Assembly (NCBI RefSeq): GCF_056712565.1 | Contig: NZ_CM160072.1 | DNA length: 64,000 nt | Direction: 5' to 3' (one strand) | Shown here: positions 32,160-42,600 of the stretch, one piece after another | Position numbering within the stretch: position 1 is the stretch's first letter | Layout of the letters: every line of letters begins with the position of its first letter | Program-made: the position numbers and the translations under genes | Notes under the pieces: generated by a model | What the model saw: the letters and a program-made list of their open reading frames with translations, nothing else | The model's database searches: none | Told to the model about the DNA's origin: nothing

Positions 32160-32927
32160 CTATTTTTCGATTGCACCATCCACTATCACCATCGATCTTC
32201 CCTGAGCACAACGTTCAACTCTCCCGCGTACGCCGTATACCTGCGCAAGGCTCTCTGCATGGATCACCGTTTGCGGGTCGCCGCTGTCGATAAGTTTCCC
32301 CTCTTTCAGCATGATGACCTGGGCGGCATGCCGCAGTGCGATATTGATATCGTGTAAGACGACCAGCGTAACCATATTGCGTCTTCGCGTTTCGCGCGAT
32401 ACAACATCCATCACATGGAACTGATAATTGAGATCCAGCGCGCTCAGTGGTTCATCCAGCAATAATAATGCGGGGCGGCGAATAAGCGACTGTGCAAGCC
32501 CCACCAGCTGCTTCTGACCGCCGGACAGGCTATCGAGGTAGTTCATTGCCAGATGTGCGATGCCTAGCTCTTCGAGCAGCGCTATAGCCTGCGCCTGATT
32601 TTGCCCGGCGCCGGAGGCGCGCTGGGCGACAACCACCGACTCCAGCACCTGTAAATGCACGCCCTGCGGCAGGGACTGCGGCAGGAACACAACTTTTTCA
32701 GCCCGACGAGCAAACGGCAGCGATAAGAGATTCTCTTCATTCAGCCAGGCTTCGCCACTGGCGCGATTTAGCCCGGCCAGGGCGCGCAGTAGCGTTGATT
32801 TACCGCAGCCATTAGGCCCCAGCAGTACAGTGACTTCGCCGCGCGGCAGCGTAGAAATCGACAGATGCTCAATAATCCGCCGTTTGCCGTAACCGGCGCA
32901 CAGCGCATTAATCGTAAGCCCGCTCAT
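32160..32927 (-). CDS. ABC transporter ATP-binding protein (iron-siderophore/hemin FecE/HmuV-like)
   Basis: Walker A GPNGCGKST, signature LSGGQKQ, Walker B LLLLDEP. Confidence 0.85.
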   Translation of the reverse strand: MSGLTINALCAGYGKRRIIEHLSISTLPRGEVTVLLGPNGCGKSTLLRALAGLNRASGEAWLNEENLLSLPFARRAEKVVFLPQSLPQGVHLQVLESVVVAQRASGAGQNQAQAIALLEELGIAHLAMNYLDSLSGGQKQLVGLAQSLIRRPALLLLDEPLSALDLNYQFHVMDVVSRETRRRNMVTLVVLHDINIALRHAAQVIMLKEGKLIDSGDPQTVIHAESLAQVYGVRGRVERCAQGRSMVIVDGAIEK

Positions 32928-33982
32928 GACATACTCCCTCGATGACGCATTACAATGCTCAGAAAGAACGGAACGCCTACCAGCGAGGTAACAATTCCTA
33001 CCGGTAAAATGACACCGGGAATGATGTTCTTCGACGCTACCGAGGCCAGCGATAGCACCAGCCCACCGATAAGGATGCTTCCGGGCAAATAAAAGCGATG
33101 ATCTTCTCCCAGCAACAGGCGAGAAATATGCGGTGCAACCAGGCCAATAAAGCCAATTGGCCCCACAAACGCAACCGAAAGGGCCGCCAGCAGGCTGATG
33201 CGCAGCAGGGAACCCAGGCGCAAACGGCGAACATCAATGCCAAAACTCATCGCCCGCTCTTCGCCGAGGCGTAGCGCGGTAAGCTGCCAGGCACGACGCA
33301 GCGACCAGGGTAAAACAATCGCCATCGCCGCCGCCAGCACCGCCAGTTTCTCCCATGATGCGCGAGCCAGGCTGCCCATCGTCCAGAACACCAGGCCCTG
33401 CAAAGTATCTTCATCGGCGACAAACTGCATAATGGACACCAGCGCATTGAAGGTAAACACCAGCGCAATCCCAAACAGCACAACGCCCGACGTCGGCACG
33501 CGCGTCCAGCGGGTCAGACTATCGAGCAGCAGGGCGGACAGGAGCGCAAAAAGAAAAGCGTTTGCCGGTATAAACCCGCTTTCGGGAACGCCGGGAATAC
33601 CGATGCCCAGAACAATCGCCAGCGCTGCGCCAAAGGCCGCCGCCGACGAAACGCCAAGCGTAAACGGGCTGGCGAGGGAGTTATTCAGAATAGTTTGCAT
33701 CTCTGCCCCGGCCAAACCCAGCGCCATTCCTACCAGGAGCGCCATCAGCGCATAGGGCAAACGGATGTCCCAAACGATAACCCGCATGCCGTTAGTCGCC
33801 CCGGACGGATGCATCAAAGTCTTTATCAGCGAATGTAAAGGGAGCCCTGAGGGGCCGAGGGTGAAATCGAGCAGCAGCGAAGCAATGATAGCGATAAAAA
33901 TAACCGCCAGTATTACCAGACGCTGGCGAAAAAGCTGGCGATAGCGGTTCTCGACCGACAGCGTACTTTCCAATACAGTCAT
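32924..33982 (-). CDS. ABC transporter permease, FecCD family
   Basis: 352 aa polytopic membrane protein; 4-nt overlap with the ATPase gene. Confidence 0.8.
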   Translation of the reverse strand: MTVLESTLSVENRYRQLFRQRLVILAVIFIAIIASLLLDFTLGPSGLPLHSLIKTLMHPSGATNGMRVIVWDIRLPYALMALLVGMALGLAGAEMQTILNNSLASPFTLGVSSAAAFGAALAIVLGIGIPGVPESGFIPANAFLFALLSALLLDSLTRWTRVPTSGVVLFGIALVFTFNALVSIMQFVADEDTLQGLVFWTMGSLARASWEKLAVLAAAMAIVLPWSLRRAWQLTALRLGEERAMSFGIDVRRLRLGSLLRISLLAALSVAFVGPIGFIGLVAPHISRLLLGEDHRFYLPGSILIGGLVLSLASVASKNIIPGVILPVGIVTSLVGVPFFLSIVMRHRGSMS

Positions 33983-34000
33983 GGTTTTTCACAGCCTCCG

Positions 34001-34993
34001 TTAGCGCGGCGGATTGAGCACATCGCTCATCTGCGCATCGCTTAACGTCAGGCCAAAGAACTGCCGATAAAACTCACGCGTCTCTTTGCGTATATCCACA
34101 TCAGCAAATCGCGCAGGATAAAGCGTTTTCGCCAGCCACAAAAATTGCAGCGCCTCTTCGCTGGTTTCACGGCACCACCAGAACATTCCTTTCGGATTAA
34201 CGTAAACGCGATGATGAATGACCGCGTCCACGCTTGCCCACTGCGGAGAACTCAGAATGGCATCCGCGTCGCGCTTGTTCATCGCGATGATAACCGCCGG
34301 ATTGGCAGTGACAATTTTCTCCAGCGCGACTTCACCCGAACGATTTTGTTGATGCTCGCCAAACCAATTTTCAGCGATATTTTTGCCGCCGGCCAGGTCA
34401 ATCCAGTCCTGGTTTAGCGAGGGTCTACCGGTGGTGGTCAGCGGATTGCCCATACTGTGATAGAGCGACACGCGCTGTGACGCAGGAAGATCTTTCAGGC
34501 GCCCGGTGACCAGGGCCACGTTGCGATCGAAGTAGCGTTGATAGGCGAGCGCTTTTTGCTGCGCATCGGGCCCCAGCACCGCTGCCGTTTGCTGTACGCG
34601 CTGCGTTAACGCCCGCAGTGAATTCGCCTCAAACGCCAGCACCTGCACCCCAGCCTGTTTCAGCAACGCCTGTTGAGGCACTACCATATTCTGCGGTACA
34701 AAAAGCATATCGACCCCCAGCGCGATAATCTGTTCGGGATTGATTTCATGCCCGCTGTTTACGCTAACTGCTGCGACTTTCTCTATGCGCGGCAGGCTCT
34801 GGCGAAACAGGGGGATCCTTTTTGCAATCATCGAGGTTCCGACAATGTTATCGCCGTACCCCAGCATGGCAATAATGGTATTTTGCGCCGGCCACGGTGA
34901 CGCGATACGCACCTCCTTGTGCGTATTTTCTGCGTGCAGGCTGGCCGCCAGCAGCAGCGCCAGCAGCGGAAATAAACGGGAGAGTTTCATCAT
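34001..34993 (-). CDS. periplasmic iron-complex binding protein (ABC substrate-binding, class III)
   Basis: Signal peptide MMKLSRLFPLLALLLAASLHA; length and position between receptor and permease. Confidence 0.75.
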   Translation of the reverse strand: MMKLSRLFPLLALLLAASLHAENTHKEVRIASPWPAQNTIIAMLGYGDNIVGTSMIAKRIPLFRQSLPRIEKVAAVSVNSGHEINPEQIIALGVDMLFVPQNMVVPQQALLKQAGVQVLAFEANSLRALTQRVQQTAAVLGPDAQQKALAYQRYFDRNVALVTGRLKDLPASQRVSLYHSMGNPLTTTGRPSLNQDWIDLAGGKNIAENWFGEHQQNRSGEVALEKIVTANPAVIIAMNKRDADAILSSPQWASVDAVIHHRVYVNPKGMFWWCRETSEEALQFLWLAKTLYPARFADVDIRKETREFYRQFFGLTLSDAQMSDVLNPPR

Positions 34994-35000
34994 TTATCCA

Positions 35001-37166
35001 TCAGAAATCGAAGGTGACGGATGCACGCACTTCGCGGCCGCCGCCGATAAACGCACTTGGGGAACCGTTATCGCCATCGGTACCCGATGGGAAGATAGAA
35101 GCCCAGTAATGTTTATCAAACACGTTGTTTACCACCACGCGGAAAGTGGTTGGGACGTTGCTCACTTTCGTGGTGTAACGCGTTCCCAAATCCCATGTGG
35201 TATAGCTGCTGGCGTAAGAGGTGTTGGTATCGTTCGCCGCGCGTTTGCCCGTATAATGGACGTTAGCGCTGTAAACCCATTCCGGTATGGACGGCAAACT
35301 GTATTCCGCCAACAGATTGGCCTGCACTTTCGGCACGCCGACAACCTGTTTATTGCTGGTTGAGGCATTCGCCGTATCTTTCAGTTTCGGGTCGAGGAAG
35401 GTCACGCCGCTGTAAATATTCAGCCCCTGCCACACATTCCCGGCAGCGGTTAACTCAAGGCCGTTGTTAACCTGGTTACCCTGCTCTTTATACACGTTAT
35501 CCGTATCAAGATAGGCAAACGGACGTTCCAGTCGGAACAGCGCGGCGCCTAGATTCATCTCGCCGATGTCCGATTTTAGCCCCACTTCATACTGCTTGCT
35601 GCGATACGGGTTTAGCGTTTGACCGGCATTTTTTACGCTCTCATCCGTCGGTGCGGTACCGCCCTGCTCCAGCGAATCGGCATAGCTAACGTAGGCCATT
35701 GTGTTAGGGGTAATTTTATACATCAGCGCGGCGTTCGGACTTAAACCATTTTCATCAACCTGGTTCGTTTGATTACCGTGCTTATCGTAGTTTTTAGTCT
35801 GCAGCCAGCTCTGGCTGAGATAGAACATTGCCGACCACTGCGGCGTAAATGTCACCGTATCGCCGAGCGTAACGCTCTGCTGAGTATTTACGCTGGAGCG
35901 GTATCGCGGCCCGCCGGTGCGGATTTTGCCATCGCCCTGCTCATCTATCGCATCCGGGTGATACATATTTGTTGTACCCCAGCTATAGCTGGAACCTGTT
36001 CCTTTGGCACTATAAAGCGACCAGACATATCCCGTGGTAGAAAGTGACAGATCGTGGCCGATAGAGCCGGTATCAATATGACCATTCAGCCCGGCGGTGT
36101 TGCTCAGGACGCGAAAACGTCCGGCAGCGGTGGAATCCTTCATCGAACGAGAGATATCGCCCTGATTGTTGAGTATTTTACTGGAAACACTACGCATCGC
36201 GCGGTCAGCCTGCTGCCAGCCCACGCCAGCGTTCATGGACCAGTCGTCGTTAAAGTAGTGGATCAGGCGAGTGCTGATGGTATCGGTAGTGAGGTCGTTG
36301 CCCGCAGTGCTGAGCGCCAGATTTTTGTCCTTCGGATTCGGCGCAGACGGCAGTTTGACGTTCGGCCCATAGTTAAAGCTACCGACATAGCCTTTCTGGA
36401 TAAATTCGTAATGGCTGGCGTCGAGCTGTAGCTGAGTGCCCGGCTGAATATTCCAGTCGAGCGCAACGGAAACGAGTTTGCGACGCAGCGTGCTGTCATC
36501 CACATTGCCTTCCCCTTCCTGATCAAGCAGGTTCACGCGATAGCCAAACCGTTTGTTTTCATCAAAATGGCCACCCAGATCGGCATGGCCGGTAAACGCA
36601 CTGCGGCTTTGATAGCCCAGCGTCACTTTACGCAGCGTCTCTTCGGTTGGGCGCTTCGCCACGAAATTAAACTGCCCTGCTGGGCTCGCCGGGCCGTACA
36701 GCGCGCCGGTCAAACTGTTAAGCACATCCATGCGCTCAAGCATTTCCACCGGAAACGCGGTTGTTGAAACGATATTCAGCCCGTCCAGACGGCTGTTGGC
36801 CACCACGCTGCCCTGCATCCCCCGACTTTGCGGACGCCCGACATCCATTCCACCGCGCGCCTGCATTTGCGTACTGGGAGAGTATTTCAGCATCTCGCTG
36901 ACGCTTTGCGCCTGCTGATTTTCAATCATCTCTTTAGTAACAGTGGTGCTGGAATATGGTGTTTCGATCCAGGATTTCGTTCCCAGCGGGCCGACATCTA
37001 TATCGTTCGTTTTGAAACCGGCACCGGCGGCAGAATCGGTGGTGTCGGCGGCGGTGTTGCCCGTGACAATCATTTCATCTTCAGAAGTAGACGAGGCATG
37101 AGCATGAAGCGGTATGAAAGACGCTAATGCTGGCAAAAGCGCAGCGAAAGTTATTTGAGTTTTCAT
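35001..37166 (-). CDS. TonB-dependent outer-membrane siderophore/iron-complex receptor
   Basis: 721 aa; signal peptide, plug domain, C-terminal barrel ending in F; first gene of the four-gene uptake operon. Confidence 0.8.
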   Translation of the reverse strand: MKTQITFAALLPALASFIPLHAHASSTSEDEMIVTGNTAADTTDSAAGAGFKTNDIDVGPLGTKSWIETPYSSTTVTKEMIENQQAQSVSEMLKYSPSTQMQARGGMDVGRPQSRGMQGSVVANSRLDGLNIVSTTAFPVEMLERMDVLNSLTGALYGPASPAGQFNFVAKRPTEETLRKVTLGYQSRSAFTGHADLGGHFDENKRFGYRVNLLDQEGEGNVDDSTLRRKLVSVALDWNIQPGTQLQLDASHYEFIQKGYVGSFNYGPNVKLPSAPNPKDKNLALSTAGNDLTTDTISTRLIHYFNDDWSMNAGVGWQQADRAMRSVSSKILNNQGDISRSMKDSTAAGRFRVLSNTAGLNGHIDTGSIGHDLSLSTTGYVWSLYSAKGTGSSYSWGTTNMYHPDAIDEQGDGKIRTGGPRYRSSVNTQQSVTLGDTVTFTPQWSAMFYLSQSWLQTKNYDKHGNQTNQVDENGLSPNAALMYKITPNTMAYVSYADSLEQGGTAPTDESVKNAGQTLNPYRSKQYEVGLKSDIGEMNLGAALFRLERPFAYLDTDNVYKEQGNQVNNGLELTAAGNVWQGLNIYSGVTFLDPKLKDTANASTSNKQVVGVPKVQANLLAEYSLPSIPEWVYSANVHYTGKRAANDTNTSYASSYTTWDLGTRYTTKVSNVPTTFRVVVNNVFDKHYWASIFPSGTDGDNGSPSAFIGGGREVRASVTFDF

Positions 37167-37594
37167 GAATCACTGATCGTTATGTAAATATTTATATTAC
37201 GATCGGTGCATAGGCAAAATTATGATCCAGATCACACGTGAATGTAAGTTATTTACAAATTACGCTAACCTTCTGTCTCCGCTCTTTGCAGCATAAAAGT
37301 ATGGCGGCGCGTTGTTGAAAGCAGGAGCGGCCGGGTTGTCAGAAAGCTGGTTTGGACGCAAGTAATATATAACAACTCTGATTACCGCATACTGTCAGGA
37401 CAGTATCTACTTGAGCGTCCGCCTTTGGCACAAAGCGGACTGTCAGATTAGATTCAGACCTGTACTCATTAGCTGATACAAATCAGCCACATATACCTGC
37501 ATTCAAAATAATTTCAGAAAGATATTATCTCCGTGAATCCCCCGCCACCTTTCCGGTGCACGGGGTTTTGTCTTTTTTCACTGGGAATACATGT

Positions 37595-38029
37595 ATGAAT
37601 CCGTCTGATGCCATTGAGGCAATTGAAAAACCGCTCTCCTCCCTGCCTTACCCGATTTCCCGTCACATCCTGGAACATCTGCGCAAACTCACCCGTCACG
37701 AACCCGTGCCTGGCATTATGGGTAAAAGCGGGGCCGGTAAATCCTCACTCTGTAATGCACTGTTTCAGGGGGAGGTCACCCCGGTCAGTGCACTCATGAC
37801 AGTGCTTCCCGGACATGCCGCCATCCATCTGATGACACGCCTGCAGGACGAACTGCGCACGGAGTCTGTCCGCACTCAGACCCGTGAACAGTTTACCGGT
37901 GCGGTGGACCGGATATTTGACACGGCGGAGAGTGTCTGCATTGCCTCTGTTGCACGCACGGTTCTGCGCGCCGTCCGTGACTCGGTGGTCTCTGTTGCCC
38001 GCGCGGTATGGAACTGGATTTTCTTCTGA
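37595..38029 (+). pseudogene. yeeP: yeeP/yfjP-type prophage GTPase with an internal in-frame deletion of the GTPase core
   Basis: N-terminus with P-loop GIMGKSGAGKSSLCNALFQGEV and C-terminal tail ...VSVARAVWNWIFF are present, but the G3-G5 region is missing (145 aa instead of about 290). Confidence 0.55.
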
Positions 38030-38116
38030 ACCCGGTGGTGATGTACCAGGCTGTTGTTACAGATTTTTAACTCCATGAAAACACTATGCAAACGCAGCCA
38101 TACCCGGGGTGTCCCC

Positions 38117-38145
38117 TTGCGTTGTGTTCCTCAAGTTAATAGAAT
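38117..38145 (+). promoter_or_regulatory. candidate sigma70 promoter (-35 TTGCGT, 17-bp spacer, -10 TAGAAT) for the dynamin-like operon
   Basis: Hexamers read in sequence at 38117..38122 and 38140..38145. Confidence 0.45.
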
Positions 38146-38147
38146 AC

Positions 38148-38190
38148 ATCGATCGTTACTATTATATTGATCGTTATAAACGATCGTTTG
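38148..38190 (+). promoter_or_regulatory. cluster of three GATC (Dam) sites including the palindrome GATCGTTATAAACGATC, immediately downstream of the candidate -10
   Basis: GATC at 38151, 38169 and 38182; perfect palindrome at 38169..38185. Confidence 0.5.
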
Positions 38191-38246
38191 TAGTAAATGA
38201 CCTCCTCCGTGGTTGTCATGAAAATGCGTCTCAGGAAGGTTAAATA

Positions 38247-40631
38247 ATGCACGAAAAGAACATCGCCCTGCTTTGTGATGAAGCCGACCGACTTTTGCAA
38301 CTGAACATTAATCTGCTCCGGCAAATGGTTGAGGAGCCAGATGTGTTATCTGACAGTAAGAACGAAAACAGACTGCTTTTTGATAAACAGAAAGCACTGA
38401 AAAGAATTGAGGAGCTGGAGGGCGAACAAATCAAAACCGCCCGCAGGGAGATGGTGCTGGCTGTTGTCGGCACGATGAAAGCAGGCAAATCAACCACCAT
38501 CAACGCCATTGTGGGGCAGGAAATTCTGCCTAACCGTAACCGCCCCATGACCTCTGTACCGACGCTCATCCGCCACGTTCCCGGAAAAACTGAGCCGGTT
38601 CTCCATCTGGAACATATTCAGCCTGTCCGCAATTTATTAATCACACTGCAGGAAAAACTCGCCACCCCGGCAGGACAGCAGGTCGCACAGACCCTGCAGC
38701 AAACCGGGGATACCCGCGAACTGCTGGATATTCTGACGGATGATGGCTGGCTCAAAAATGAATACCACGGGGAGGAGGAAATCTTTACCGGACTGGCATC
38801 GTTAAACGATCTGGTTCGTCTTGCTGCGGCAATGGAGACTGAATTTCCTTTTGATGAATACGCAGAAGTGCAGAAACTGCCGGTGATCGACGTGGAATTC
38901 AGCCATCTGGTGGGGATGGATGCATGCCAGGGAACACTCACACTGCTGGATACCCCCGGCCCTAATGAGGCCGGACAACCGCAGATGGAAGTGATGATGC
39001 GGGATCAACTGCAGAAAGCCTCTGCGGTTCTGGCTGTGATGGATTACACCCAGATGAACTCAAAAGCGGATGAAGACGTCCGTAAAGAGCTTAATGCCAT
39101 TGCTGACGTATCAGCCGGCCGCCTGTTTGTACTGGTCAATAAATTTGATGAGAAAGACCGCAATGGCGATGGGGCAGATGCCGTACGCCAGAAAGTTCCG
39201 GCAATGCTGAACAGCGATGTGCTGCCCGCCTCCCGCGTTTATCCCGGATCCTCACGCCAGGCATACCTGGCTAACCGTGCGCTTCATGAGTTACGGAAAA
39301 ACGGAACCCTTCCTGTTGATGAAGCCTGGGTCGATGATTTTGTCAGGGAAGCCTTCGGTCGCATGAAAAAAGATTACGTCTGTAAAGACAGCGAACTGGC
39401 AACTGAAGGGGCGACAGACCTGTGGGAATGCTCACTTATCGATCAACTGATAACGGAAGTCATACTGAGTTCACACTCCAGAGCTGCGGCACTGGCGGTT
39501 GATTCTGCCGCCGCAAAACTGATGCAGAATGCAGAAAATATCAGTGAATACCTGTCGTTACGCCATCAGGGGCTGATGCAAAGTATTCAGTCACTGCAGG
39601 CGCATATCACCAGCCTGCTTGAGGATATCCGGGAAATAGCAGACTGTCAGGAGCAGGTGACCGCTGATGTCAGAATGGCCATGGAGGAGATCGATGCCAG
39701 AACCCGGGAATTACTGACGGGGGTCTGCACCTCACTGGAAGAGGAGCTGAATGACTATTTCAGAAGCGGTAAACGCAAAGAACAGCAAATGCTGGAGGAA
39801 GAAAATTCAGCGCAGCCCCGGGAGAGAAACGCATTCGCTTTCTTTCACGATATTTTCGGAACCGGAAATCAGCATGACAGGATGCGGGACTTTGATCCCG
39901 ACAGCCCCGAAATAAAATTCAGTGATCGCAGGGAAGCCCTTGAACTGATGACGCAAATCGAATCGACCGTGACCAGCCTGCACCGTGAGGCTGAAGCACA
40001 GTTCCGGCCTGAGCTGGAGAAAATCGTCAGCGGGATTGAAACAGGTTTTCGTGGCACGGCCCTGTACGCCACAGAAAACATTGCCGGTCGCATCAATACC
40101 CGCCTGGAGGATGAGGGCTTTACCGTAAAAATCAGTTTTCCGGCAGTCAGTCAGTTACAAACCCGGCTCGCGGTAAAAACAAATCTGAGTGCGCTTATGG
40201 AGGAAAGAACGGAGACCGTCACCCGTCGCCGTCGGCAGAGTGGTTTATGGGGAAAGATTTGTGGAGCGTTTGGCACCAGTGACTGGGGCTGGGAAACCTA
40301 TAAAGAGGATGTGAGCCGCAGTGTTATCAATATCAACACCGTCAGGAAGGAAGTTATGTCACTGACCCGGGCATATTTCGGGGAGCTGCAGGCATCCATT
40401 GAGCAGGATATTAACCAGCCCGTCCGCCAGGAAATCGATGCCTTTTTCTGCGCATTCAGGGAGAAAGTTGAACAACTGCGTAACACGCTGATTCAGAGCT
40501 CTGAAGATCATAAACGCGATCAGCAGGCACAGGAACGGCTTACCAGGCGACTTCAGGCATTAAATGAAAGGGTTCCTGAGCTCATTACTGACAGTAAGGC
40601 GCTGAGGGAAGAGCTGGAGACAATGCTGTGA
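38247..40631 (+). CDS. bacterial dynamin-like large GTPase (CrfC/YjdA-type)
   Basis: 794 aa; G1 GTMKAGKSTTINAIVG, G3 LLDTPGPNE, G4 LVNKFDEKD, long coiled-coil C-terminal half; RBS aggaagg 8 nt before ATG. Confidence 0.8.
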   Translation: MHEKNIALLCDEADRLLQLNINLLRQMVEEPDVLSDSKNENRLLFDKQKALKRIEELEGEQIKTARREMVLAVVGTMKAGKSTTINAIVGQEILPNRNRPMTSVPTLIRHVPGKTEPVLHLEHIQPVRNLLITLQEKLATPAGQQVAQTLQQTGDTRELLDILTDDGWLKNEYHGEEEIFTGLASLNDLVRLAAAMETEFPFDEYAEVQKLPVIDVEFSHLVGMDACQGTLTLLDTPGPNEAGQPQMEVMMRDQLQKASAVLAVMDYTQMNSKADEDVRKELNAIADVSAGRLFVLVNKFDEKDRNGDGADAVRQKVPAMLNSDVLPASRVYPGSSRQAYLANRALHELRKNGTLPVDEAWVDDFVREAFGRMKKDYVCKDSELATEGATDLWECSLIDQLITEVILSSHSRAAALAVDSAAAKLMQNAENISEYLSLRHQGLMQSIQSLQAHITSLLEDIREIADCQEQVTADVRMAMEEIDARTRELLTGVCTSLEEELNDYFRSGKRKEQQMLEEENSAQPRERNAFAFFHDIFGTGNQHDRMRDFDPDSPEIKFSDRREALELMTQIESTVTSLHREAEAQFRPELEKIVSGIETGFRGTALYATENIAGRINTRLEDEGFTVKISFPAVSQLQTRLAVKTNLSALMEERTETVTRRRRQSGLWGKICGAFGTSDWGWETYKEDVSRSVININTVRKEVMSLTRAYFGELQASIEQDINQPVRQEIDAFFCAFREKVEQLRNTLIQSSEDHKRDQQAQERLTRRLQALNERVPELITDSKALREELETML

Positions 40632-41533
40632 CTTCACCATTTATTCAACAAATTGCTGATAACCGGGTATGTCAGGTACTCACCTGTCTTCCTGAAAAAT
40701 TTGTGGTTGATTTCGCAAACGGAATCGATGTTGCACAGGAGCATATCCGCACGGCCGGAGAGCGCACGTTCTTCCGGCGTTTAAAAGAGGGACTGACCGG
40801 CGAAGGCGCTGCACGGCAGAATGCCATCAATGCTTCGGTTGCACAGGGCCTTGAGGCGTCCCTGCGCTGGCTGACGGAGCTGACAACGTCACTTGCCACC
40901 ACAAACTACGCGATTACCCGGGTAAACGACAGGGTCAGTTCACTGGTCAGTGATACTGCCAGGCTGGCGCATTATTCCGCAGATACACGGGAGCAGTTAC
41001 TCATCCTGGCCGATCAGGTTCACCATAAACTGAATCATCTTGAAGAAAAACTCCACCGTGTTGACCAGGTTCAGCGGGCGCAGTTACATCTTGAGCAGAT
41101 ATTCTCATGGTGGAGCGCCGGGCGATATGCGTCATTTTCCCCTGCCGGACGTTGTTATGTGGCGCTTGAAGAGCTTCGCTGGGGCGCGTTTGGTGATGTG
41201 ATACGTCAGGGCGAAACAGGCCAGGTTAACCAGCTACTGGATATTCTCAGACATAAAGCATTAACGCAGATGGCACAGGAGAGTGGCGGTAGTGCAACCG
41301 TGCGTCTGAACACTCTGGACTGGCTTGGTGGTCAGGGCCGGGAGCAGGCAGATAACGAGTGGCATGACGCGATTAACTGGCTGGGAGACTGGTGCAGTGA
41401 AGAGCAGCATCCGGTGATCTGGTCAACCACGCAGGCTGCAGAACACTTACCGGTTCGCATGCCTCGCCTCTGCTCTGCAGAACGCCTCTCTGAAAGTATG
41501 GTCGATGAAATATTTCAGAAGGGGGCTGCATGA
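40628..41533 (+). CDS. dynamin-associated partner protein (possibly YjcZ-like), function unknown
   Basis: 301 aa; GTG start overlapping the dynamin stop (GTGA overlap), implying translational coupling. Confidence 0.55.
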   Translation: MTSPFIQQIADNRVCQVLTCLPEKFVVDFANGIDVAQEHIRTAGERTFFRRLKEGLTGEGAARQNAINASVAQGLEASLRWLTELTTSLATTNYAITRVNDRVSSLVSDTARLAHYSADTREQLLILADQVHHKLNHLEEKLHRVDQVQRAQLHLEQIFSWWSAGRYASFSPAGRCYVALEELRWGAFGDVIRQGETGQVNQLLDILRHKALTQMAQESGGSATVRLNTLDWLGGQGREQADNEWHDAINWLGDWCSEEQHPVIWSTTQAAEHLPVRMPRLCSAERLSESMVDEIFQKGAA

Positions 41534-42600
41534 GTACAGAAATGAAAACGGGGCTGGTGCTGTCCGGTGGCGGGGCGGTGGGCGCTTATCAGGCGGGAGT
41601 GGTTAAGGCACTGGCAGAGTGTGGTACACAGATCAGCATGGTTTCAGGGGCCAGCATTGGCGCATTCAATGGTGCCATTATCGCGGCCTCTCCCGATCTG
41701 TCAGAAGCTGCCGTACGCCTGGAGGCGCTCTGGGATCATCTGGGGAATAATCAGGTGCTGTCGGTAAACCGATTGGTTTACTTTTCATTGCTGAAAAAAT
41801 TGTTCCAGGCAATGAACCTCTGCCAGATCCCCGGACGTGCAGGAGCACTGCTTACGACGCTTCTTCGCCATATATCGATACTCAACGGGTTTGACAATCT
41901 GATGGCTCAGCCGTTGTTGTCAGATGAGCCCCTGACAGCGCTGTTGGATCATTATCTTGATACTGATGCTCTGGCAGACGGGCTACCGCTGTATGTGTCG
42001 CTGTACCCCACAGAAGGGGGCATGCAGGATATTATTGACTGCATTCGTGCTGAACTGGGTGCCGGAACCACGAAAAACGCCGTTTTTCAGCATATCCAGA
42101 GCCTGCCCCGCGGACAGCAGAAAGAGGCTCTGCTTGCGTCAGCCGCGCTGCCCCTGCTGTTCCGTCCCCGTGAGGTTCAGGGGACAATGTTCGGTGATGG
42201 TGGTATGGGAGGATGGCGAAATATGCAGGGAAATACCCCTGTGACGCCTCTGGTCGATGCCGGATGCAATATGGTGATTGTGACGCATCTGAGTGACGGT
42301 TCTTTATGGGATCGCCAGGCTTTTCCGGACACCACAATCCTTGAGATCCGTCCCCGGAAAAGGCTGAAATATGCAGGTGATGGTGACAACAGCGGCGGTC
42401 TGCTCAGTTTCACGTTGGCACATACCGACGCCTGGCGTCAGCAGGGCTATGAAGACACGATGCTGACGATGGAGCATATCCGGAAACCGCTGGCAGCACG
42501 TCAGGTACTGTCCCGGTCAGAAACGGTGTTGCAGAAAAGTCTGGAGATAACGGAAGAGGCAGATTTGGCACTGAGAAACGCGATGGCCCGGATTAAATAA
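41530..42600 (+). CDS. patatin-like phospholipase
   Basis: 356 aa; glycine-rich oxyanion loop LSGGGAVGAYQAG, nucleophile elbow GASIG (GxSxG), catalytic-Asp DGG motif (FGDGGMGG); ATGA overlap with the preceding gene. Confidence 0.8.
   Translation: MSTEMKTGLVLSGGGAVGAYQAGVVKALAECGTQISMVSGASIGAFNGAIIAASPDLSEAAVRLEALWDHLGNNQVLSVNRLVYFSLLKKLFQAMNLCQIPGRAGALLTTLLRHISILNGFDNLMAQPLLSDEPLTALLDHYLDTDALADGLPLYVSLYPTEGGMQDIIDCIRAELGAGTTKNAVFQHIQSLPRGQQKEALLASAALPLLFRPREVQGTMFGDGGMGGWRNMQGNTPVTPLVDAGCNMVIVTHLSDGSLWDRQAFPDTTILEIRPRKRLKYAGDGDNSGGLLSFTLAHTDAWRQQGYEDTMLTMEHIRKPLAARQVLSRSETVLQKSLEITEEADLALRNAMARIK

Follow-up and report, generated by a model that had tools for sequence, protein, structure and literature searches.

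An internally deleted yeeP-type GTPase gene at the head of a CP4-44-like island module in Escherichia coli CFT073

The truncated gene and its surroundings

The window, by which the whole analysed stretch of 64,000 nucleotides is meant, is identical to positions 2,320,304-2,384,303 of the E. coli CFT073 chromosome and covers the island between cobU and tmaR (yeeX), which occupies the same chromosomal site as the cryptic prophage CP4-44 in K-12. Within this island, the ORF under study (Table 1) reveals 100% identity to C_RS25995 / WP_001069647.1 of CFT073, a product that is labelled 'hypothetical protein' in this strain and 'GTPase family protein' in some other genomes. The deduced protein has the family-like start MNPSDAIEAIEK and the P-loop GKSGAGKS, extends up to the residues GEVTPVS and from there passes straight to ALMTVLP, and it ends with the C-terminal tail VVSVARAVWNWIFF of the GTPase family. 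Homology to paralogous island modules, which are present in thousands of genomes, starts at approximately 37493-37501, roughly 95 nt 5' of the ATG, and the alignment with the corresponding locus of an O145 strain is near-identical from about position 37500. This leader contains a terminator-like hairpin (37539-37565; -18.4 kcal/mol, z = -1.9) followed by a T-run (to 37578), approximately 20-30 nt 5' of the start codon. An analogous upstream hairpin, which is stronger (z = -3.8) and unrelated in sequence, was detected at K-12 yfjP.

Downstream of the ORF, a cassette encoding a dynamin-family protein, a YjcZ/RdcB-family protein and a patatin-like phospholipase was identified, the first gene of which begins 217 nt behind the ORF, in line with the first-pass annotation that had placed the truncated gene immediately upstream of a dynamin-like cassette. 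In K-12, the dynamin-family and YjcZ/RdcB-family proteins have the paralogs RdcA (YjdA) and RdcB (YjcZ), which have been described as a GTPase system partnering the diguanylate cyclase DgcE (PMC6510439). The patatin gene is followed by two hypothetical genes, a DUF932 gene, an antirestriction gene, yeeS, yeeT, cbeA, cbtA and yeeW, i.e. by the CP4-44 backbone. A comparison of the CFT073 annotation with CP4-44, CP4-57 and CP4-6 of K-12 showed that the ORF comes first in the backbone order GTPase - (cargo) - DUF932 - antirestriction - RadC/JAB - DUF987 - CbeA/CbtA. The description of the gene as the left anchor of a CP4-44-like module is reasonable, as the module homology begins close to its start codon and the CP4-44 backbone order follows; the island itself extends 37 kb farther to the left, up to cobU. 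PADLOC yielded only weak LeoBC and 'Effector' hits, concerning the full-length GTPase, dynamin and patatin genes, and no system was assigned.

The island also harbors two genes for TonB-dependent receptors (2021-4168 and 35001-37166). The receptor gene adjoining the truncated ORF is part of a separate FecCD-type ABC transporter cluster (32161-37166), of which yoeA is the K-12 remnant. Since hma corresponds to c2482 (PMC2736566) and c2484 has been described as 'YbdM' (PMC2978726), the receptor gene next to the truncated ORF was considered as hma and rejected; 'YbdM' fits the IbrB-like gene beside the left receptor, which thus appears to be hma.

Table 1. Features of the truncated GTPase gene and the adjoining part of the island (window coordinates)
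Feature	Position	Strand	Basis or remark
Conserved leader of the GTPase module	37493..37594	+	Paralogous island modules homologous from here
Truncated yeeP-type GTPase ORF	37595..38029	+	ATG to TGA, 144 codons and stop; derived by in-frame deletion from a 290-aa gene
Retained G1/P-loop codons GKSGAGKS, residues 43-50	37721..37744	+	Motif search; family alignment
Deletion junction, sole remaining copy of the 8-bp direct repeat GGTCAGTG	37783..37790	+	Alignments
12 substitutions private to deletion-bearing alleles	37792..37933	+	Allele table
Spacer between remnant and dynamin-family gene, 217 nt	38030..38246	+	Homologous to the agn43 (flu) regulatory region
Downstream cargo	38247..42600	+	Annotation and profile matches
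Dynamin-family protein	38247-40631	+	CrfC/YjdA paralog, 550 bits, below the 1146-bit equivalog cut-off
YjcZ/RdcB-family protein	40628-41533	+	Annotation and profile matches
Patatin-like phospholipase	41530-42600	+	Annotation and profile matches

The deletion, its junction and the lost catalytic core

The ORF matched its own protein cluster with an E-value of 4.5e-87, and 'YfjP family GTPase' was among the names of the hits. Over the retained residues, identity amounts to 94% with the syntenic O145 ortholog, 46% with YfjP and 42% with YkfA, while the length of the ORF, 144 aa, falls far short of the approximately 287-310 aa of the family. A comparison of syntenic E. coli loci revealed a full-length gene of 873 nt, coding for a 290-aa 'GTPase family protein', between the same flanks in O145 RM9872, ETEC1749 and other strains. 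In the two named strains it lies directly 5' of the same dynamin/RdcB-like/patatin cassette, and in O145 RM9872 the annotation moreover places this full-length gene at the same cobU-tmaR site. In CE10 and further strains, a 'GTPase family protein' gene beside the dynamin gene was matched in two pieces over a span of about 1,238 bp, whereas C10 possesses at that place a near-full-length copy that is frameshifted. Most of the 5,426 complete E. coli genomes contain an 873-nt 'GTPase family protein' gene to which the ORF matched in two pieces.

Alignment of the window with the O145 locus disclosed a single gap of exactly 438 bp with near-identity on either side, and one internal gap was likewise found when the ORF was aligned with YfjP and YkfA of K-12 (287 aa each). 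The first-pass annotation had proposed an internally deleted yeeP-type GTPase gene which keeps the N-terminal P-loop region and the C-terminal tail but has lost about 140 residues in an in-frame fusion. Both alignments bear this out; the exact loss amounts to 146 codons (residues 66-211 of 290). Thus, the 144-codon ORF is a deletion derivative of the full-length island GTPase gene. In the full-length alleles, the octamer GGTCAGTG bounds the gap at both ends (CACCCC GGTCAGTG ATGTT and TACGCT GGTCAGTG CGCTC), at gene positions 189 and 627 of the FORC_081 allele, and a single copy has remained at the junction. The offset of 438 bp between the two copies is divisible by three and both are read in the same frame (PVS|D and LVS|A), so that 146 codons disappeared without a frameshift. 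Repeated 8-mers are not rare in this gene (19 in one allele); GGTCAGTG therefore explains the junction and is not remarkable in itself. The additional assertion that the neighbourhood has been rearranged by deletion goes too far, because the deletion is strictly intragenic and both flanks are collinear with the full-length loci. The upstream TonB-receptor/ABC cluster, IS elements and the presence of either flu or the dynamin cassette as cargo are differences of the neighbourhood that go back to separate events.

One might suppose that the ORF is a naturally short member of the family, since it has a proper start and stop codon and is annotated as an intact CDS. Apart from the syntenic full-length ortholog, the database searches argue strongly against this supposition. 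Among 1.84 billion representative proteins, 1,215 relatives were detected; those listed at 30-44% identity comprise 286-330 aa and were aligned across residues 8-289, while every short form in the databases is an E. coli fragment that shares over 90% identity with the family. As even the distant relatives are full-length proteins of approximately 290-310 aa, the 144-aa ORF does not represent a natural short form, and a naturally short protein can be dismissed with near certainty.

To what extent the deletion affects the GTPase is evident from an alignment of 30 full-length family members with identities down to 30%. Sixteen residues are invariant in this alignment, six of which are retained in the P-loop region (G43, G46, G48, K49, S50, N54), while ten fall into the deleted segment (D90, P92, G93, E96, Y104, Y108, D116, W120, R127, P159) together with the nearly invariant residues T71, Q153, D155 and K156. 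When a complete G domain is defined by the motifs G1-G5 (GxxGxGKS, T, DxPG, xQxDK, SA), the ORF has kept G1 alone. Switch I (G2, T71), DxPG (G3, D90-G93), xQxDK (G4, Q153-K156) and G5 (A197-A200) were all located within residues 66-211. Consistent with this loss, the remnant scored 18.9 bits against Pfam MMR_HSR1 (cut-off 21.9), with only sub-threshold matches of the P-loop, and it was recognised neither by NCBIfam and PHROG nor by any other family, defence-system or phage-protein model searched. By contrast, the full-length ortholog passed the cut-offs of both MMR_HSR1 (49 bits) and Dynamin_N (31.9 bits) as well as the NCBIfam threshold. Judging from the motifs lost, the remnant cannot act as a GTPase of the YeeP/YkfA/YfjP family, and neither GTP binding nor hydrolysis is predicted for it.

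The AlphaFold model of the full-length protein (pLDDT 92) begins with two N-terminal helices, strand 1, the P-loop and helix 1, followed by strands 2-6 with their helices (residues 75-200) and four C-terminal helices. On this model, the deletion spans from switch I to the middle of helix 206-216 and removes strands 2-6, i.e. five of the six core strands, along with helices 2-4. The helices at either terminus and strand 1 together with the P-loop are retained. For the remnant itself, helices at residues 3-14, 19-33, 73-82, 90-114 and 118-143 were predicted with a pLDDT of 80-90 (pTM 0.68), and the P-loop remnant alone was poorly predicted (56-69).

YfjP of CP4-57, YkfA of CP4-6 and the 290-aa proteins WP_001069811.1/WP_001069813.1 of O145 RM9872 and ETEC1749 are homologous to the N-terminal 65 and the C-terminal 79 residues of the ORF and occupy the same position at the head of the island backbone. 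Other than the ORF with its single motif G1, they possess a complete G domain (MMR_HSR1 49-58 bits, Dynamin_N above the cut-off). In sequence comparisons, the full-length family matched the TRAFAC GTPases Era, Der and MnmE; its G domain aligns with residues 14-182 of Era. In the full-length model, the G domain is flanked by N- and C-terminal helices as in the immunity-related (p47/IRG) GTPases, and a Foldseek search with this model gave Irga6/IIGP1, Irgb6/Irgb10 and GM4951 as best matches (E about 5e-10, TM about 0.55), ahead of Era, which was matched by the G domain alone (rmsd 3.5 A over 190 columns). Identities between the full-length family and IRG, Era, MnmE or Der amount to 16-23% at a TM of about 0.5, and the window remnant lacks the G domain. 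The models thus point to a resemblance in fold of the full-length family to the p47 GTPases and not to membership in that group.

A second decayed member of the family is yeeP of K-12 (b1999), a pseudogene of CP4-44 which lies at the same locus (cobU to tmaR/yeeX), is 91% identical in its C-terminal half and borders the yeeS-yeeT-cbeA-cbtA-yeeW backbone on the left, itself preceded by TonB-receptor remnants. The possibility that both genes share one lesion was rejected. K-12 yeeP is truncated at its 5' end, where the first approximately 106 codons including the start and the P-loop are gone while G4 and G5 are kept, and it has neither the junction nor the private substitutions described below, whereas in the window allele start and P-loop are preserved and residues 66-211 are missing. 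The cargo differs as well, namely flu (Ag43)-yeeR in K-12 and the dynamin/RdcB-like/patatin genes in the window. Taken together, the ORF very probably represents a decayed allele from the family of yeeP, ykfA and yfjP, whose genes open the conserved backbone of CP4-44/CP4-6/CP4-57-type islands in E. coli. A literature search on the function of yeeP, ykfA and yfjP produced list-type mentions only.

Spread, origin and route of the deletion

The occurrence of the deletion was determined with a 48-nt junction probe, the arms of which are too short to match full-length genes at the E-value used. The probe hit 1,015 sites distributed over 920 of the 5,426 complete E. coli genomes, with a single site on a plasmid record, and the junction is therefore neither a product of chance nor an assembly artefact. 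Carriers include CFT073, Nissle 1917, ATCC 25922, SE15, JJ1887 and EC958; the allele is common in uropathogenic-type strains. A second deleted allele (WP_001069809.1), which is 96% identical, resides before the dynamin gene in another island arrangement, in strains E5 and APEC E956. In this second arrangement, an integrase gene and three further genes are inserted upstream, and it has its own deleted GTPase gene and dynamin/YjcZ/patatin cassette. Nissle 1917 contains both copies, the second one being frameshifted and accompanied by a complete second cassette (CP007799 270782-287075).

The window allele and the E5/E956 alleles have 12 substitutions in common that are absent from the four full-length alleles used for comparison. 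They lie exclusively 2-143 nt 3' of the junction, while there is none in the 188 nt on its 5' side. A block of 145 nt behind the junction is at least 97.9% identical in 921 records (794 + 127), which equals the number of records with the junction, and every other record listed shows an identity of 92.2% or less. Since junction and private signature occur in the same number of records, the deletion arose once. It is highly improbable that the GGTCAGTG pair is a hotspot at which the same event took place many times. Such recurrence could draw on the conservation of the repeat pair in all full-length alleles examined and on the finding that the deleted allele is present in both island arrangements, some genomes having it at two separate loci; against it stand the 12 substitutions next to the junction, which all deleted alleles examined have in common, and the coincidence of signature and junction across the 5,426 genomes with its sharp drop in identity beyond the carriers.

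The remaining differences between the two deleted variants match some full-length allele, e.g. a C10-like 3' end in E5, and in protein P0011 the N-terminus of a different paralog is joined to the deleted body. Evidently, the terminal parts of the allele were swapped through recombination between paralogs.

The following course of events is most likely. A single deletion joined the two in-frame copies of GGTCAGTG and removed the 438 bp between them; either two copies recombined illegitimately, or the event was a microhomology-mediated or slipped-strand deletion. The in-frame loss preserved start, P-loop and stop, for which reason annotation pipelines call the remnant an intact gene for a 'hypothetical protein'. 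Subsequently, the deleted allele was inherited along with the adjacent dynamin/RdcB-like/patatin cassette and copied to the second island type, its ends being partly overwritten through recombination with full-length paralogs.

Whether one or two gene copies took part in the deletion is a matter of the private block, which exhibits a dS of about 0.28 and an omega of 0.16-0.26, compared to a dS of about 0.09 for the same codons of the full-length alleles. Such values look more like prolonged divergence with purifying selection than like neutral decay or clustered repair errors, and a mutation shower at the repair junction is an unlikely source of the block in view of its density of 8% and its synonymous excess. 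Two readings fit a block that starts at the junction. The deletion may have been generated by illegitimate recombination at the 8-bp microhomology between an O145-like 5' partner and a diverged 3' partner, in place of slippage within one copy. We regard this route as possible but tentative. It would account for the abrupt shift in divergence at the junction (0 private substitutions in 188 nt on the 5' side versus 12 in 143 nt on the 3' side) and for the substitution pattern of the 3' block. However, the same picture would result if the 5' arm had been converted afterwards as far as the heterology, and no full-length donor with the signature was found in the genomes, plasmids or protein hits searched. 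Exact-pattern scans of species-representative genomes gave no hits, plasmids contained nothing above 91% besides one deleted copy, among the records listed for the 5,426 E. coli genomes nothing fell between 92.2% and 97.9%, and protein hits covering the C-terminus reached 92% at best. The locus offers a clean natural case of in-frame microhomology deletion, with flanks that paralog recombination reshaped afterwards. The junction is, in addition, a handy single-origin marker for following the cassette across lineages.

Fate of the remnant and the switch-like spacer

The remnant is most likely without function, because its catalytic core is absent, further-decayed copies exist and decay is frequent in this family. 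A few carriers show additional damage, i.e. frameshifts (P0022, P0025), extra in-frame losses (P0007, P0010, P0017) or a truncation (P0028), and elsewhere in the family K-12 yeeP is 5'-truncated and the C10 copy frameshifted. An independent in-frame loss, of 109 residues between 9-bp repeats (TTCCGTCTG), was noticed in the database protein P0008 (181 aa). For the internal deletions of P0009, P0012 and P0018, no convincing microhomology was detected and they may be artefacts, which leaves P0008 as the only convincing case.

On the other hand, the clusters of the 144-aa protein contain about 925 member sequences compared to a handful of disrupted ones, and the ORF is open in two island variants that have diverged by 4%. 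These data raise the question of a functional derivative, in which a helix-only product of 144 aa folds and, for instance, binds or poisons full-length paralogs of the same genome. The helices that make up the helical domain of the full-length model, two at the N-terminus and three at the C-terminus, are left, and with the confidence reached for them a folded helical product is conceivable. However, the model of the remnant is driven by the full-length alignment and the packing of its helices may be inherited from the full-length proteins. In favor of the derivative, CFT073 has four further places matching the gene region. The frame is open in most of the 920 genomes, yet the carriers have diverged too little for this to carry much information, and several carriers, including Nissle 1917 with its second copy, are frameshifted or further deleted. 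A dN/dS below 1 (0.38 between the two deleted alleles; 0.16-0.26 over the 48 codons after the junction) would also favor a functional product, but these values are based on 13-17 differences and are confounded by recombination. Most differences between the alleles match full-length alleles and look as if they were imported by recombination from functional ones. Considering also that no family, defence-system or phage-protein model recognises the remnant, a functional derivative is improbable. A more specific version, according to which the remnant is a 'stalk'-like, helix-only IRG-like derivative kept to modulate full-length paralogs or the neighbouring dynamin-like machinery, is very doubtful; if true, it would explain why the frame is open in about 17% of the complete E. 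coli genomes and travels with the cassette.

The remnant has consequences for annotation. In approximately 920 complete E. coli genomes, including CFT073, Nissle 1917, ATCC 25922 and ST131 strains, it is mis-annotated as an intact CDS. This 'hypothetical protein' or 'GTPase family protein' CDS is what is left of a gene stripped of its catalytic core, and it ought to carry a pseudogene or partial-gene flag. For the maintenance of the island and its dynamin/RdcB-like/patatin cargo, the backbone GTPase is not required. All in all, a known island GTPase family has here a decayed gene of an ordinary kind, and the current understanding of this family is unchanged.

A feature of the context, and not of the deletion itself, is the spacer between the remnant and the dynamin-family gene. 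Its core (38139-38186) comprises TAATAGAAT and, thereafter, three GATC sites at 38151, 38169 and 38182, whose spacing of 18 and 13 compares to 19 and 13 in K-12 agn43. TAATAGAAT and the GATC sites align column for column with the upstream regions of K-12 agn43 and FORC_081 Ag43, and the motif is conserved in all six dynamin-cassette loci examined. Scored against the OxyR consensus, positions 38148-38184 agreed at 16 of 20 positions, the top match on the + strand of the 64-kb window, while K-12 agn43 reached 14 of 20. The homology to agn43 stops just past the third GATC, so that the GTPase gene and the switch form a conserved left module, behind which the cargo, either Ag43 or the dynamin cassette, is exchanged. 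It is conceivable from this similarity that the dynamin/RdcB-like/patatin operon may be phase-variable by means of a putative Dam/OxyR switch. In full-text literature searches, no publication connecting the cassette to OxyR, Dam or agn43 was found. In E5, E956 and O145 RM9872, the dynamin gene behind the spacer is split by IS21- or IS3-family elements.
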